Shown piece by piece: positions 24,134-31,815 of a stretch of DNA of 31,815 bases. Source of the stretch: a virus (lineage: Duplodnaviria > Heunggongvirae > Uroviricota > Caudoviricetes); IMG/VR virus record IMGVR_UViG_2872152978_000007. One strand, 5' to 3'. Under the pieces are notes generated by a model that saw only the letters and a list, made by a program, of their open reading frames with translations, was not told the DNA's origin and made no database searches. The position numbers were made by a program, and so were the translations under genes. Numbering within the stretch: position 1 is the stretch's first letter; every line of letters begins with the position of its first letter.

Positions 24134-24208
<75 letters not shown>

Positions 24209-24211
24209 ATA

Positions 24212-24287
<76 letters not shown>

Positions 24288-24289
24288 GC

Positions 24290-24366
24290 TGGCCCACCAC
24301 CGAGGACTCGAACCTCGCACCGTCAACTTAGAAGGTTGATGCTCTATCCGGATGAGCTAGTGGTGG
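24290..24366 (-). tRNA. tRNA-Arg (anticodon UCU)
   Basis: Reverse complement CCACCACTAGCTCATCCGGATAGAGCATCAACCTTCTAAGTTGACGGTGCGAGGTTCGAGTCCTCGGTGGTGGGCCA; 7-bp acceptor stem, anticodon loop CTTCTAA; unusual C1-G72 first pair. Confidence 0.75.
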
Positions 24367-24367
24367 T

Positions 24368-24444
24368 TGGTGGCCCTTGCTGGACTTGAACCAGCGACCT
24401 GGCGATTATGAGTCGCTCGCTCTGACCAACTGAGCTAAAGGGCC
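24368..24444 (-). tRNA. tRNA-Ile2/Met-like (anticodon CAU; ileX/ileZ-like)
   Basis: Reverse complement GGCCCTTTAGCTCAGTTGGTCAGAGCGAGCGACTCATAATCGCCAGGTCGCTGGTTCAAGTCCAGCAAGGGCCACCA; anticodon loop CTCATAA; resembles chromosomal ileX. Confidence 0.8.
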
Positions 24445-27251: not shown

Positions 27252-28070
27252 TTAAGCAGCCATCTGATGATATTTTTCCCTGAAGGCTGCCGGGGAGATA
27301 TTCCCCAGACGAGAGTGACGACGCTGACGATTGTAGAAAATCTCAATGTATTCCCGTATTACTGAGATGGCTTCATCCCGGTTATTAAAACGATAGTGGC
27401 TCAGGCTCTCATTTTTCAGCGTTCCCCAGAAGCTTTCCATCGGAGCGTTGTCGTAACAGTGACCTTTACGCGACATTGATGTTTTCAGACCAGACTGCTC
27501 CTGTATGACCCGGTAATCGTATGCGCAGTACTGTGAACCTCGATCAGAGTGGTGGATTAGCCCGGCAGGTGGGCGCTGGCTCCTGAGCGCCATAAACAGG
27601 GCTTTACCTGTCAGCTCTTTTGTCATGCGCTCTCCCATGGCGTAGCCGACAATTTCGCACGTATAAACATCTTTGATGCCAGCGAGGTACAACCATCCCT
27701 CCTGTGTGGCAACATACGTCAGGTCCGCCACCCAGACCTGATTTGGTGCTGTAGGAGCGAACGTCTGGTTCAGCAGATTTGGCGCAACTGGCAGATTGTG
27801 GTTCGGGTTCGTAGTCGCTCTGAACTTGCGTTTCTGCTTACAGCGTAGCCTTAGCTCCTTACGAAGACGTGCCAGTCGGTCACGACCAACGATGATGCCA
27901 TTCTCTGCCAGCTCCGTCTGGAGCCGCCGGGTTCCATATGTTTCGCGAGTGCGGATATGTGCCACCTTAATCTCCAGTTTTAGCCGCTCATCACTTTGTT
28001 TTCTGTCTGAGGGTTCATGCTGTACCCAGTTGTAATAACCGCTCCTGGATACACCAAATACCTGACACAT
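27252..28070 (-). CDS. IS600 transposase OrfB
   Basis: 272-aa ORF ...NQVWVADLTYVATQEGWLYLAGIKDVYTCEIVGYAMGERMTKEL...HSDRGSQYCAYDY... Confidence 0.9.
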   Translation of the reverse strand: MCQVFGVSRSGYYNWVQHEPSDRKQSDERLKLEIKVAHIRTRETYGTRRLQTELAENGIIVGRDRLARLRKELRLRCKQKRKFRATTNPNHNLPVAPNLLNQTFAPTAPNQVWVADLTYVATQEGWLYLAGIKDVYTCEIVGYAMGERMTKELTGKALFMALRSQRPPAGLIHHSDRGSQYCAYDYRVIQEQSGLKTSMSRKGHCYDNAPMESFWGTLKNESLSHYRFNNRDEAISVIREYIEIFYNRQRRHSRLGNISPAAFREKYHQMAA

Positions 28071-28105
28071 CGCTTCAATGGGAAATTGTTGTCGCCATTG
28101 TTCGA

Positions 28106-28408
28106 TTAACGCGTATTTTTCAGCGACTCCTGTGCAAAATACGCTGTTGCTTTTTTTAATATATCTCGCTCAAGGCGAGCTTCATTTAACGCCTTACGCA
28201 GTTGCAGAATTTCAGATTCCAGTTCAGCCACCGTGCGGGAACCAGGAGTACCGAGCCCTTTTCTGGCGGCGGTAACCCATTGTCCTAAAGTGCCTTCAGG
28301 AAGGGATAATCGGGAAGCGCCTTCACTGATCGAAAGTTGATTTTCAAGAACCGTTCTGACAGCTTCGGCTTTGAACTCTTTAGAGTAACGTTGGTTTTTT
28401 CTGCTCAT
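28106..28408 (-). CDS. IS600 OrfA
   Basis: MSRKNQRYSKEFKAEAVRTVLENQLSISEGASRLSLPEGTLGQWVTAARKGLGTPGSRTVAELESEILQLRKALNEARLERDILKKATAYFAQESLKNTR. Confidence 0.9.
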   Translation of the reverse strand: MSRKNQRYSKEFKAEAVRTVLENQLSISEGASRLSLPEGTLGQWVTAARKGLGTPGSRTVAELESEILQLRKALNEARLERDILKKATAYFAQESLKNTR

Positions 28409-28531
28409 TATTAGCTCCTTCTGATGCCATTCTATTTCAGGAAGGAGTGTCCGTTAAACTCAGGCTACCTCAGCCTGAGGGCAGGTGTAAAACAATAATC
28501 AAGCATGGGGTTCATATCCATAGCTCCATTT

Positions 28532-29077
28532 TTATTTTAAGGAAAGCAACTGCTCTACGGTCATGTTTTTAATTGCGCCCCGGTTTACAAGAGTCCAGCC
28601 CTGTTTTTCCAGATAAAACCAGAAAGTCTCCAGGGTACAGACCAGTGCGCCATCAGGAACGGTTTCGGTGAATTCGACATTGCCGAATTTGTCGAAGTGA
28701 ACAACCAGAGTGCGACCATCACCCGGAATCATCTTGTCAGCAGGTGGGGTGTTATTCTGGCGCAGTTCGGCCTCCATGCGGTCGAACTCAGCAATGTAGG
28801 CTTCCTTGAATGTGGCGGCTTTTTTGCCCGTGAAGCCCATCACCAGGAAAACGAAGCCGTTTTTGGTGATTTGGTAGGCGTTATAAGAATTGCCGCGGTG
28901 TTCGAATTTAACCCGCGAAAAGTTGCTGGTTAAAAATAGTTCAGAACATTCGAGGGATTCTATTTTTTGAACAACATGGTGATGCTGCTTGCCAAAAAAC
29001 TCAGCAATCGAAATAGAAGTAGTGACGGCGCGACCATTTTCGATGGTTACGTCAGGGTGAGAAAGGGTGGTAGCCAT
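28532..29077 (-). CDS. Rha-family phage regulatory protein (antirepressor-like)
   Basis: Likely start MATTLSHPDVTIENGRAVTTSISIAEFFGKQHHHVVQKIESL... (track ORF extends upstream to 29236); Rha-type N-terminal motif. Confidence 0.55.
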   Translation of the reverse strand: MATTLSHPDVTIENGRAVTTSISIAEFFGKQHHHVVQKIESLECSELFLTSNFSRVKFEHRGNSYNAYQITKNGFVFLVMGFTGKKAATFKEAYIAEFDRMEAELRQNNTPPADKMIPGDGRTLVVHFDKFGNVEFTETVPDGALVCTLETFWFYLEKQGWTLVNRGAIKNMTVEQLLSLK

Positions 29078-29243
29078 AATGACATCCTCAAGTGATAAGT
29101 TAATTAACTCACCAGCAGAGGTGCTAATCTCATGGGTGGTGAGACGCACAGGGTTAGCACTACCGGTCACTCGAGAACCCGGCCAGCCTTGCGGCTGCCC
29201 CGCACGCCTCACCATAATTTGAATGTGGCTGTGCATTACGCAT

Positions 29244-29268
29244 AAAAAAAAACCGCTTCAGCGCGGTT
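29244..29268 (-). terminator. Rho-independent terminator, minus strand
   Basis: Minus strand reads AACCGC-GCTGAA-GCGGTT followed by a T run (plus-strand aaaaaaaaaccgcttcagcgcggtt). Confidence 0.5.
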
Positions 29269-29395
29269 ATGCGCTCGAGTAACTTTCGGGGTGCTAATCC
29301 CGGCGCCCGTTTTATGAGGTGCAGGTGCATTATAATTCCACCCGTTCTGGTTTTCAATAGCTACATTCAACATTTTCTCTTTCCTTTCATCACCG

Positions 29396-29560
29396 AAGTG
29401 AATTTTGTGATGCGGTGCCTAGTGCCTCCAGGTGACGTTAACCAGTTAACAATTACAGTCGGCTTTCCCACCCAAACCAATAAGGACTAACATGACTTTT
29501 AACTGTGCCGCGTGCGCTTAGCCGCATTCACCGCATCACAAAATTCACTTTAAAAAGGGC
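29396..29560. repeat. 22-bp perfect inverted repeat pair separated by 121 bp
   Basis: AAGTGAATTTTGTGATGCGGTG at 29396..29417; exact reverse complement CACCGCATCACAAAATTCACTT at 29539..29560. Confidence 0.9.
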
Positions 29561-29794
29561 GGACATCAGCCAGCAATTAAACCGATGCCGCCAACTGGTA
29601 CTTCACACAGCAATGTCGTTATTTACAACCGGAAGCGCACTCCCACCATTTAAATTTCACAGACAAGACCGACTCTTTATGAATACCGGAAATGCGCCTT
29701 CGTGTTGTGCCCGGTTTTATTTCACCACCTCCGGGCTTTGGTGGCCTCGGCTATACCTCTACAGCGAGAATATTGAATTAATCCAATAAATGGA

Positions 29795-30001
29795 TTAGCT
29801 GGTATTTTTGGCAAGCCAGCGACGTGCGCCAGCTTCGGTTTTAAACGTTTTGCTTTTGGTATACGTCATGGCGGTGAATGTGCCGTCCTGATTGGGAAAC
29901 ACGCCACACACTAGGGATTCGTTGTTGCCAAGATCGATAGTATCCATGCTGACCTCATTTCCCCTTAACGCCGGGGTAGCGGAACTGTTTGCTGAGAACA
30001 C
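29795..30001 (-). CDS. Small hypothetical protein of the dicA-side operon
   Basis: 68-aa ORF; probable core MDTIDLGNNESLVCGVFPNQDGTFTAMTYTKSKTFKTEAGARRWLAKNTS. Confidence 0.35.
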   Translation of the reverse strand: MFSANSSATPALRGNEVSMDTIDLGNNESLVCGVFPNQDGTFTAMTYTKSKTFKTEAGARRWLAKNTS

Positions 30002-30149
30002 CGTGCGGTGTCTTGATGAATGAAATTTAGAATAACCTAAGGTGTTGGGTTAAGATTTTATGTAGAAAAACCTAAGTTTTTTTGATGTAAAAAACACAAG
30101 TGTTTGAAAGTTTGTGCTTTTTATTGCAGGGTGTGGAGAAAAAAGGGGA

Positions 30150-30557
30150 TTATTTGTTTGCGCTTCTTTTGCGAGCTTTGAGTAGTTCTTCAAAAAGTTT
30201 GTTGAAATTTTCAACTCGAGCACGCATCTCTGACAACAGGGCCTTTTGCTCTGACTCAGGCAGTGCGTCGAACAGTTGAAGTAACTCTTTTTGATCTTCT
30301 GTCAGAATGGCTGGCTGATTATCCGGGATCGGTTCGCCTGGTTGTTTATCTTCATCCCCAAAAAGAAGCCAAGTCGGTGAGCACTGAAGCGCTTGGCTCA
30401 GTGCGAATAATCTTTTCCCCGCCGGCTGTGTTTCATCTCTTTCCCATTGAGAAATTGTTACGTGAGCCACTTTGACCAGCTTACCTAATGCGGCCTGAGA
30501 CAGTTTTAATTTTTTACGCCTATGTAAGAGGCGAGCACCGAAGGTTTCGTTTTTCAT
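30150..30557 (-). CDS. dicA: DicA-like helix-turn-helix prophage repressor
   Basis: 135-aa ORF MKNETFGARLLHRRKKLKLSQAALGKLVKVAHVTISQWERDETQPAGKRLFALSQALQCSPTWLLFGDEDKQ...PESEQKALLSEMRARVENFNKLFEELLKARKRSANK, closely recalling E. coli Qin DicA. Confidence 0.8.
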   Translation of the reverse strand: MKNETFGARLLHRRKKLKLSQAALGKLVKVAHVTISQWERDETQPAGKRLFALSQALQCSPTWLLFGDEDKQPGEPIPDNQPAILTEDQKELLQLFDALPESEQKALLSEMRARVENFNKLFEELLKARKRSANK

Positions 30558-30633
30558 ATTAGGGAATTCTAATTTTTCTTGACTTAGGTTTCTCTACGAT
30601 CTAGTTTCCTTAGGAAAATCTAAGGAGCTCGAT
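30558..30633. promoter_or_regulatory. Divergent promoter/operator region between the dicA-like and dicC-like genes
   Basis: TTGACT at 30579..30584; dyad CCTTAG-gaaaat-CTAAGG at 30608..30625; CTTAGG/CCTAAG cores recur at 30583..30590 and downstream of dicA at 30035..30042 and 30069..30076. Confidence 0.5.
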
Positions 30634-30862
30634 ATGTTGAAAATTGATGCTATAGCGTTTTTTGGCAGCAAAACAAAGCATTGCCAATGCCGCAGGAGTT
30701 AGGCTGGCAAGCATTGCTGCATGGGGGGAACTGGTTCCTGAAGGTCGCGCGATGCGCCTGCAAGAGGCATCTGGCGGGGAACTTCAGTACGACCCCAAAG
30801 TTTATGACGAATATCGTAAGGCAAAACGACCTGGGAAGGTGATTCATGAAAATCAGGCATGA
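30634..30862 (+). pseudogene. dicC: DicC-like Cro-type regulator, frameshifted near 30679
   Basis: ATG at 30634 with AAGGA upstream gives MLKIDAIAFFGSKTK then stops; the next frame continues ...ANAAGVRLASIAAWGELVPEGRAMRLQEASGGELQYDPKVYDEYRKAKRPGKVIHENQA. Confidence 0.6.

Positions 30863-31440: not shown

Positions 31441-31815
<375 letters not shown>

Follow-up and report, generated by a model that had tools for sequence, protein, structure and literature searches.

An inverted repeat in a prophage-like sequence as the probable closing helix of a conserved RNA with a pseudoknot and kinship to STnc100

Introduction

The virus sequence recorded in IMG/VR as IMGVR_UViG_2872152978_000007 is a prophage-like stretch of 31,815 nucleotides (nt), which we refer to throughout as the window. 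Between a small gene on the side of a dicA-like repressor gene and a gene with a Rha domain, the window contains an interval (29237-29794) that is poor in open reading frames (ORFs) and that holds a perfect inverted repeat of 22 nt. The question raised by this locus is what kind of element the repeat encloses, and a first-pass annotation, made from the letters of the DNA, had offered three answers: a miniature inverted-repeat element, a structured small RNA (sRNA) or a large regulatory hairpin.

Here we report that the repeat is very probably the closing helix (called P1) of a conserved pseudoknotted RNA core of about 135 nt, with five helices and one pseudoknot, that is encoded on the minus strand. 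The best explanation taken as a whole, namely a conserved structured RNA together with an inferred role in transcript processing and insulation, is given a probability of about 0.6.

Results

The inverted repeat and its interval

The arms of the repeat and the unit that they bound were located as follows:

29396-29417 and 29529-29550: arms of the inverted repeat, 22 nt, perfect, bounding a unit of 155 bp
29550..29396, minus strand: the inverted-repeat unit, which begins directly after the U-tract of a KilS-like sRNA module

The repeat had been recognized correctly as perfect and 22 nt long, but its right arm had been placed at 29539-29560, which is 10 nt too far to the right, and the span given for the unit (165 bp) is replaced here by 155 bp, with a spacer of 111 nt. 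The repeat is the longest perfect inverted repeat of the 31.8-kb window. When the window was shuffled 40 times with preservation of dinucleotides, the longest inverted repeat reached a maximum of 14 nt (mean 11.9), compared to the 22 nt observed, and therefore the repeat is far beyond chance expectation.

The earlier statement that the interval has no convincing coding frame was upheld, in that none of the five ORFs tested in 29237-29794 reached the cut-off of any Pfam family, and the sole match up to E = 1 was a chance-level match of a 94-aa plus-strand ORF to DUF919 (E = 0.013, 15.8 bits relative to a cut-off of 21). An ORF of 45 aa on the minus strand (29373..29236) spans the promoter and the entire length of the sRNA IsrK, described below. 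Small ORFs in the spacer, MLVLIGLGGKADCNC in the window and MGGFSVSGVNC in the copy of prophage Qin, were considered and rejected: by eye they have no equivalent in an Enterobacter copy, and the indels of the insert are not multiples of three. The informative features of the interval are all encoded by the minus strand, as is the early-left operon on the dicA side, and what had been called ORF-poor is a dense array of minus-strand RNA elements.

Fold, covariation and strand

A total of 143 instances of the unit, which represent 73 distinct variants, was used in the structural analysis; because the retrieval pattern spans the 5′ core including helix P2, the conservation of P2 and of the 5′ core is partly a result of sampling. 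RNAalifold, applied to 39 non-redundant copies, recovered the inner 9 bp of P1 as well as P2, P3 and P5 unguided and with compensatory changes, and P4 and the pseudoknot were added to the model by inspection. In the window, the elements of the fold are, in the 5′ to 3′ direction:

29529..29550, minus strand: 5′ strand of P1 (the right arm); the inner 9 bp covary, and pairing of the outer part is kept in every lineage although its sequence differs
29513..29526, minus strand: hairpin P2, UGCG[GCUAAG]CGCA, 4 pairs, the stem being invariant in 37 sequences; family form UGCG[GCUNAG]CGCA
29460..29510, minus strand: P3, in which 29510..29507 pairs with 29463..29460, enclosing the pseudoknot 5′ strand CAGUUAA (29505..29499) and a variable insert
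29435..29459, minus strand: hairpin P4, whose loop UUGUUAACUGG holds the pseudoknot 3′ strand UUAACUG (29449..29443)
29418..29432, minus strand: hairpin P5, CCUGG[AGGCA]CUAGG, with a U-A to G-C change in 11 of 37 sequences; family form CCUGG[AGGCA]CCAGG
29396..29417, minus strand: 3′ strand of P1 (the left arm), from the repeat search, duplex energies and pair counting

The near-palindrome GTTAACCAGTTAAC that had been seen inside the spacer is indeed present, at 29437-29450, and it corresponds to the 3′ strand and loop of P4.

The full model was quantitatively evaluated with 37 non-redundant copies and 36 base pairs. It was found that 96.9% of the alignment cells were paired, whereas sliding the 3′ partners by 1 to 3 columns reduced this value to between 27 and 38%, and 17 of the 36 pairs had changes on both sides. 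No shuffle out of 500 matched any of the observed pairing measures. Such double changes are present in all helices except the invariant P2. In P3 (95.9% paired) 2 pairs were changed on both sides, and the insert that this helix encloses is variable in length and sequence. The P4 stem, of which the majority form is GCGUUAA[UUGUUAACUGG]UUAACGU, differs in sequence in the Rac-type, Enterobacter, Klebsiella and Citrobacter copies, with 6 of its 7 pairs changed on both sides. The pseudoknot, formed by CAGUUAA just 3′ of the P3 5′ strand and UUAACUG in the P4 loop, was 98% paired with 3 pairs changed on both sides, and it was fully compensated in two divergent subtypes (AAGGUUG/CAACCUU and UGGUUAU/AUAACCA).

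Columns of the MAFFT alignment were unreliable for the outer part of P1 owing to a 1-nt bulge shift, and formal pair counting in P1 was limited to the inner 9 bp; the outer part was evaluated in an alignment-free way by duplex energies. By this measure, the outer arms pair in every lineage despite unrelated sequences, as for example CUUUAAGGUGCGGUG/CACUGCACCUUAAAG in Citrobacter and ACCUUGCAAUGCAAGUG/CACUGCAUUGCAAGGU in Klebsiella. This maintenance of pairing between arms that differ in sequence and length among lineages is a signature of selection as RNA. In arms that contain G·U pairs or a bulge, the minus-strand duplex is 6 to 11 kcal/mol more stable than the plus-strand duplex, which indicates that the element is selected as an RNA on the minus strand.

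The window holds one copy, which scores 134 bits with covariance model R1, built from these sequences without STnc100. This copy has two non-canonical pairs in P4 that were seen in neither parental type, because the 5′ strand of the helix (ACUGUAA) is Rac-type and the 3′ strand (UUAACGU) is of the majority type; judging from its sequence, the window copy looks like a recombinant, with a Rac-type 5′ half and a 3′ half of the majority type. That appearance, together with the observation that 3′-arm types correlate with the gene that follows, could be accommodated if the unit were a site acting at the DNA level (a cruciform, a protein operator or a recombination linker) kept by the exchange of modules among lambdoid prophages. 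We regard a DNA-level site as very improbable, however, in view of the compensatory changes in the five helices and the pseudoknot, a G·U strand asymmetry that is not expected of a DNA site, and the conservation of the unit in P1-like phage-plasmids and in other genera with unrelated flanks.

Distribution and genomic contexts

The unit is present in multiple copies across genomes. A 167-nt query around it had matches in 4642 of 5426 complete Escherichia coli genomes (about 85%), at a median of 2 and a maximum of 9 places per genome, often in more than one prophage of the same genome and with roughly 10,000 copies in E. coli overall. Copies were detected as well in Citrobacter, Enterobacter, Klebsiella, E. 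albertii and E. ruysiae; lambdoid phages and the P1-like phages P7 and D6 have them too, as do 187 plasmid records, nearly all of phage-plasmid size. With multiple copies and conserved pairing, the unit is not a single-copy part of a known leader without conserved pairing.

Within prophages and P1-like phage-plasmids, the examined copies recur at a few operon positions that are syntenic, and their orientation is always that of the downstream gene. In E. coli K-12, the Qin copy fills the spacer from the 3′ end of dicF to the start of dicB, and the Rac copy fills the spacer between kilS and kilR; these two spacers (155-165 nt) are 82-95% identical to the window unit, and neither has an RNA annotation in the RefSeq records examined. 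The dicF-dicB and kilS-kilR intervals correspond to 1649435-1649608 and 1418230-1418404 of NC_000913.3. In most copies the downstream ORF starts 14-30 nt after P1. The downstream neighbors were DicB (PF05358, about 55 copies), KilR (about 26 copies) and an ORF leading into a module of IsrK, C4 RNA and Rha (about 11 copies), and additionally, in P7, D6 and contigs related to them, a TerB-like protein, TciA (PF05099); small membrane proteins and some further ORFs made up the rest. A second subtype, with about 30 copies, has a KilS/DicF-like sRNA and its terminator directly 3′ of the core.

The second subtype (locus L008, 1427-1586 on the minus strand, loci L029, L030 and L031, and about 26 further IMG/VR loci) has a 9-bp P1, then UUUAU, and then the KilS/DicF-like sRNA and terminator, an order that is the reverse of that in the window and that resembles the layout of STnc100. 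A motif, ACCACCGAGCCUGAAGUGGUGAAAAGACAGGCA, lies upstream in this subtype and also upstream of a Klebsiella copy (L024). The copies of P1-like phages and phage-plasmids, among them P7 (L032, 2481-2636), D6 (L033, 2481-2641) and the 187 plasmid records, also have a 9-bp P1; they come after a cluster of tRNA genes and are about 38 nt 5′ of tciA/terB in the C1-controlled ban operon. A tRNA-like element, an idea taken from these copies in the tRNA operons of P7 and D6, was rejected as ARAGORN found nothing in 29200-29800 of the window.

One exception in context among the copies examined is in Enterobacter, where the unit is beside ordinary chromosomal genes. The two copies (L021, 4807-4961 on the minus strand, and L023, 727-881 on the plus strand) precede an ORF of 186 aa with a weak, sub-threshold match to Pfam GerE (a LuxR-type helix-turn-helix), and their P1 is split into 6 + 10 bp of entirely different sequence. 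The neighbors in L021, identified from their sequences only, are cytochrome-b561-like and GAPDH-like ORFs, a context that is not prophage-like.

These data bear on the proposal of a miniature inverted-repeat transposable element (MITE) or other mobile DNA repeat, for which the terminal inverted repeats, the lack of coding capacity and the presence of several copies per genome speak. The short direct repeats that a mobile element might leave are absent: the flanks of the unit are TGTCCGCCCTTTTTA and CGGTGATGAAAGGAA, without a target-site duplication. The copies are syntenic and in one orientation at few operon positions, the arms vary between lineages while their pairing is kept (including the G·U pairs that favor one strand), and the inner core is more conserved than the arms, which is the opposite of the MITE pattern. 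For practical purposes the MITE option is refuted.

Position in the transcript

The elements on either side of the conserved RNA are as follows:

29552..29646, minus strand: KilS/DicF-type sRNA module; terminator stem 29589..29562 and U-tract 29556..29552
29371..29395, minus strand: linker 3′ of P1, with a mini-hairpin, a purine-rich stretch AAGGAAAGAG resembling a Shine-Dalgarno (SD) sequence, and an ATG at 29373, all recognized by inspection

The upstream module was found to be identical to K-12 KilS at 85 of 102 positions (83%), with KilS covered over its full 98 nt, and it includes the GGCGG...CCGCC terminator and U-tract of K-12 KilS, a site resembling a Rho-independent terminator. The Rfam DicF model matched 29607..29557 at 28.6 bits, below its gathering score of 48. 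KilS is annotated in strain MG1655 as b4833, and the U at its 3′ end (1,418,405) is the final one ahead of the 5′ arm of the unit. It has been described as a 98-nt Hfq-associated sRNA verified by northern blotting (PMC8175672).

Between the terminator of this module and the 5′ arm of the unit no promoter-like site was found, and there is no terminator-like site after the 3′ arm, the next one being the IsrK terminator about 130 nt downstream. The unit is transcribed only on read-through of the upstream KilS/DicF-type sRNA terminator by RNA polymerase, in the early-left operon of the prophage. The suggestion of a structured sRNA or large regulatory hairpin was therefore right as regards structure, since the repeat closes a covarying pseudoknotted minus-strand RNA, but not as regards an independent transcript, since the unit has neither a promoter nor a terminator of its own and is within an operon transcript.

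In the linker, the mini-hairpin UCAC-UUCG-GUGA (29386-29397, minus strand) begins in the last bases of the P1 3′ arm and so competes with the base of P1. Its stem is kept across the Rha-type contexts with a variable loop (UUCG, UUCA or UCAG).

A location inside long phage operons that contain terminators is where a cis-acting modifier of elongation for the distal early-left genes, by put-like antitermination or an anti-Rho activity, might be found. Silencing of kilR by Rho/NusG-dependent termination, reportedly described in PMC5793797, is relevant here. We consider an elongation modifier quite improbable, because the unit is after and not before the KilS/DicF terminator, it is also present in N-carrying phages (POCJ13) and, as STnc100, in Q-controlled late operons, and put RNA differs from it in architecture and position; a put-like antiterminator was accordingly rejected on the architectural mismatch.

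P1 length and RNase III processing

The length of P1 was found to vary with context. It was 21-29 bp in all 92 copies located between a terminator and dicB, kilR or the ORF of the Rha module, and 8-10 bp in all 35 copies that precede an sRNA with a terminator or terB/tciA. Long P1 stems of unrelated sequences are also present in Citrobacter and Klebsiella. An RNase III site requires a double-stranded RNA helix of about two turns, as in the stems flanking rRNAs, the lambda N leader and the early intercistronic sites of T7, and the 22 perfect pairs in the window reach this substrate length (about two helical turns, or about 20 bp or more). Selection on the length and not the sequence of P1, at about two turns, fits the requirement for an RNase III site. 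We tentatively propose, at somewhat less than even odds, that P1 may be a stem processed by RNase III, by which the sRNA is uncoupled from the mRNA 3′ of it.

In such a mechanism, cleavage in the outer half of P1 would detach the downstream mRNA from the sRNA in the read-through transcript. Such a cut would also take away the 5′ arm and release the core with a P1 stub of about 10 bp, which is about the length of P1 in the short-stem subtypes, and it would undo the pairing of the terminator tail CCCUUUUU with the purine-rich ribosome-binding region of the next gene. Processing would thereby set the output of the downstream, often toxic, product.

Folding predictions were consistent in part with this proposal. 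In the read-through RNA, P1 is predicted to extend, with the terminator tail CCUU(UUU) paired to the purine-rich ribosome-binding region. The predicted probability of being unpaired for the dicB SD sequence was 0.23 in the read-through RNA and 0.80 once the 5′ part was removed, and the corresponding values for the window SD sequence were 0.58 and 0.78. There is also one datum from the literature: in Table S1 of Gordon et al. 2017 (PMC5371410), position 1649470 of NC_000913.3, in the dicF-dicB spacer, has 0 and 0 reads in the wild type as opposed to 26 in the rnc deletion. This position falls inside the Qin copy of the unit.

Several observations weigh against a processing role. For kilR in Rac, folding predicts an SD sequence that is already open (0.79) in the read-through RNA and less open (0.41) without the 5′ part, and a general model of SD occlusion was rejected, as in silico it holds for dicB, weakly for the window, and fails for kilR. 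The row for position 1649470 has 26 reads among many rows of low count, in libraries that were apparently unstranded and with sites less than 400 bp apart merged, and part of the signal could come from a known RNase III site that is upstream of dicF at a distance of about 225 nt. That known site, mapped in the dicBF transcript, is 5′ of dicF and not in the dicF-dicB spacer, which ruled it out as the element described here. No direct mapping of a transcript or of cleavage of the unit was found in the literature searched. The operon copies of P7 and D6 have a P1 of only 9 bp, which indicates that a long stem is not needed for the role of the core. The strong conservation of the core, including the invariant P2, points to a specific partner, which is beyond what a processing model requires. 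Lastly, cross-linking and analysis of cDNA (CRAC) with Hfq in O157 strain Sakai (Tree et al.) reported no peak at the Sp10 copy, which is a weak point because the early-left operon is repressed in lysogens.

Another possibility is that the core is a riboswitch-like or protein-binding sensor of a ligand or of a phage or host protein, and controls the translation or stability of the next gene. Five helices, a covarying pseudoknot and long conserved junctions are typical of aptamer-like RNAs, three GUUAA repeats allow alternative pairings, the dicB SD sequence is predicted to be occluded, and the spacing of 14-30 nt noted above places the core 5′ of small and often toxic genes (for DicB, KilR, the TerB-like TciA and small membrane proteins). 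On the other hand, the genes that follow the unit are of diverse kinds, no ORF adjoins STnc100 or the L008-type copies, and no consistent expression platform appears, the SD sequence being predicted to be occluded in Qin, weakly so in the window and not in Rac. A permissive Rfam search (E ≤ 10) over 28400-30700 gave no riboswitch or ribozyme family, with a sub-threshold match to STnc100 as the only one that fits the unit, and at gathering thresholds no Rfam family fits the unit in the whole window. On balance, we consider a sensor unlikely, and for P1 we retain the tentative processing proposal.

Relationship to STnc100

The search against RNA family models yielded one resemblance, to STnc100 (RF02076). 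The match of this model to the unit covers model positions 21-154 of 206 and scores 30.7 bits (E = 2.9e-4), which does not reach the gathering score of 47, and at this threshold there was no STnc100 match in the whole window. In the reverse direction, model R1 found a genuine STnc100 over its full length (53.1 bits, E = 2.6e-13). The genuine STnc100 located downstream of stx2B in strain Sakai scores 207.7 bits and is EcOnc27, an RNA of about 235-247 nt that is destabilized without Hfq (Tree et al.); STnc100 has been linked independently with PasD of enteropathogenic E. coli (EPEC) in a 2026 preprint.

The likeness extends to the core architecture, in which the helix order is common: P1 (...GGUG), AAU, P2, a short P3, P4 and P5. 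P1 of STnc100 is GCAUGGUG/CACCAUGC; its P4 loop UGGUACCAGG, equivalent to UUGUUAACUGG in the unit, can pair with an upstream CUGGUG located just after P2/P3; and in both RNAs a P5 of the form CCNGG[AGGCA]CCNGG (CCGGG[AGGCA]CCCGG in STnc100) abuts the 3′ strand of P1. Both are carried by lambdoid prophages, and the relatives of STnc100 include PasD1 and PasD2 in EPEC and EcOnc27 in O157 Sakai.

The differences are as follows. The unit is without the 5′ leader of about 30 nt and the 3′ terminator module that make STnc100 a discrete sRNA of about 206-247 nt. It is in the early-left operon beside a dicA-like repressor gene, between an sRNA terminator and an ORF, whereas STnc100 follows Q, stx or a moron in the late region. 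The sequence of P2 is UGCG..CGCA in the unit and CCCCC..GGGG in STnc100, and P1 is 22 bp as opposed to 8 bp. The unit is a sister branch of the Rfam STnc100 family (PasD, EcOnc27) that departs from it in several features which define the family: the gathering score is missed, there is no 3′ terminator of its own, and its position is early-left and not late.

This architecture in common, and the appearance of EcOnc27 and PasD as discrete, Hfq-stabilized RNAs on northern blots (PMC8550237), also raise the possibility that, in the manner of STnc100, PasD and EcOnc27, the unit works in trans as an sRNA that stands alone and depends on Hfq, with the core as the body and a seed that pairs with host or phage mRNAs. 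In the second-subtype copies the core is directly before a DicF/KilS-like module with a terminator, and in the window the downstream distance to the IsrK terminator makes a core-plus-IsrK RNA of about 300 nt conceivable. We nevertheless think a stand-alone sRNA doubtful. The absence of a promoter-like site before the 5′ arm and of a terminator after the 3′ arm, the missing terminator part in the match to the STnc100 model, the start of an ORF so soon after P1 in most copies and the lack of a reported Hfq peak at the Sakai Sp10 copy all argue against it, and a conserved RNA inside a read-through transcript remains our interpretation.

Other elements of the interval

In the 5′ to 3′ direction of the minus strand, and apart from the sRNA module, unit and linker already given, the following features were identified:

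29795..29947, minus strand: YdfA/YdaF-like small gene (DUF1391); Pfam PF07151 on residues 20-66, E = 2e-29, within ORF 29795..30001
29329..29357, minus strand: sigma-70-type promoter of IsrK; TTGAAA, 17-nt spacer, TATAAT, 11 of 12 consensus matches, directly 5′ of the IsrK match
29246..29322, minus strand: IsrK, an Hfq-binding sRNA, with terminator; Rfam RF01394, 63.8 bits relative to a gathering score of 50, full length
29132..29219, minus strand: C4-type antisense RNA (P1/P7 immI-like); Rfam RF01695, 78.6 bits relative to a gathering score of 45, full length
28532..29078, minus strand: Rha-family antirepressor-type gene; Pfam PF09669 on residues 72-155 of a 234-aa ORF

The genes named earlier as flanking the interval were confirmed, as the DUF1391/YdfA-like ORF and as the Rha-domain ORF (PF09669, E = 5e-26), and the minus-strand terminator that had been noticed (stem 29268..29251 followed by a T-run) is the terminator of IsrK. 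The YdfA/YdaF-like gene, which likely starts at the Met of MDTIDLG, is the first gene of the early-left operon and is upstream of the RNA cluster.

A long imperfect hairpin is predicted at 29625-29708 (minus strand), 5′ of and overlapping the 5′ end of the KilS-like sRNA. It is placed like the RNase III site that yields the 190-nt DicF precursor in Qin, and Gordon et al. (PMC5371410) list an rnc-dependent position, 1418510, that is 8 nt 5′ of the KilS 5′ end in Rac. A second inverted repeat (29633-29659 and 29493-29519) reflects complementarity between the 5′ part of the KilS-like sRNA, GUGCGCUU, and the 3′ half of P2, AAGCGCAC. This could allow pairing of the sRNA with the unit, or it may be trivial because UGCGCA is itself palindromic.

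The true start of the Rha gene is probably the ATG of MATTLSH, preceded by GAGGA, as judged by inspection, and the longer ORF that reaches back to 29236 overlaps the C4 RNA. In related loci (L001, 2296-3135, and L002, 2287-3135), RefSeq has a "Rha family" coding sequence (CDS) of 279-284 aa whose start is the ATG just 3′ of the unit and which spans the C4 RNA as well as IsrK and its promoter. The corresponding frame of the window (29078-29373, minus strand) is broken into ORFs of 45 aa and 234 aa that overlap in TAATG, apparently owing to a one-base difference near the T-run of the IsrK terminator (9 T in the window), as the translations suggest. Pfam Phage_ASH (PF10554) matches the 234-aa ORF at residues 5-60. 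Because the DNA encoding this match also scores as C4 RNA, translated RNA genes may be what the N-terminal extension, and possibly the Phage_ASH family too, represents.

Elsewhere in the window there are four tandem tRNA genes (24137-24444, minus strand; Rfam tRNA, 56-70 bits). ORFs recognized by eye as IS3-family orfA/orfB-like (27252-28408, minus strand) are located just 3′ of the Rha gene, where relatives carry kilR or dicB, ydaE and recE, and a second orfA resembling that of an insertion sequence (IS) (31477-31815, plus strand) runs past the window end. On this evidence the prophage looks truncated and degraded.

Discussion

A description of this element as a structured RNA was not found in the literature searched, and neither the OxyS/kilR paper nor the O157 machine-learning paper describes a structure of the kilR leader. 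The element is an unannotated and very widespread variant of the STnc100 kind of phage RNA, and as a structured RNA it appears to be undescribed. It follows from the relationship to STnc100 that one pseudoknotted RNA ties together sRNAs that have been studied apart in Salmonella, EPEC, enterohemorrhagic E. coli and K-12, and this suggests that the structured body of STnc100/PasD/EcOnc27-type sRNAs is an ancient phage module and not a lineage-specific sRNA. The K-12 copies adjoin the well-studied genes dicF/dicB and kilS/kilR, and the unit provides a concrete idea of how read-through transcripts might be divided where an sRNA that inhibits division is followed by a gene for a division inhibitor or an antirepressor. 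There is also an annotation problem, as current pipelines miss the RNA of the unit and extend a "Rha family" CDS over the genes of IsrK and the C4 RNA.

A bolder interpretation is that the core common to the unit, STnc100/PasD and the P1-type phage-plasmids (P2, the junctions, the pseudoknot and P5) represents a new functional RNA class, which binds a ligand or protein or is catalytic. We do not think this probable. If it were true, temperate phages would be placing this core beside sRNA modules and host-killing genes, the extended P1 would couple its function to RNase III processing, and the unannotated dicF-dicB and kilS-kilR spacers of K-12 would be a model-organism entry to a widespread phage riboregulator.

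Among known systems other than STnc100, the stems processed by RNase III in the rRNA flanks, the lambda N leader and the T7 early region likewise consist of a helix of about two turns that flanks a structured RNA or is located between phage cistrons. The effect of cleavage in the lambda N leader is to relieve a structure by which translation of the following gene is held back. P1 of the unit differs from these stems in that it closes a conserved multi-helix core and not a simple loop, and in that cleavage in the unit is predicted.

The put RNAs of HK022 are, like the unit, cis-acting structured RNAs within phage early operons. They are about 70 nt long, with two stem-loops and a triplex, and are located just downstream of a promoter (PMC9378689). 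A put RNA is without a pseudoknotted multi-helix junction, whereas the unit has a core of about 135 nt with five helices and a pseudoknot, and comes after an sRNA terminator.

The module 3′ of the unit in the window is like P1/P7 immI and the isrK-anrP region of Gifsy-1 (IsrK, C4 and antirepressor), and precedes a Rha-domain gene. This IsrK-C4-Rha module is a neighbor and not a part of the unit, which is also present without the module in Qin, Rac and P7. Another comparison is with the dicBF operon of Qin and the kilS-kilR region of Rac, where the same element is in the same position as in the window. The Qin and Rac copies directly precede the gene for a division inhibitor (dicB or kilR), whereas the window unit precedes the IsrK-C4-Rha antirepressor module, and in the window, unlike in Qin and Rac, the remainder of the operon is cut off by an IS element.

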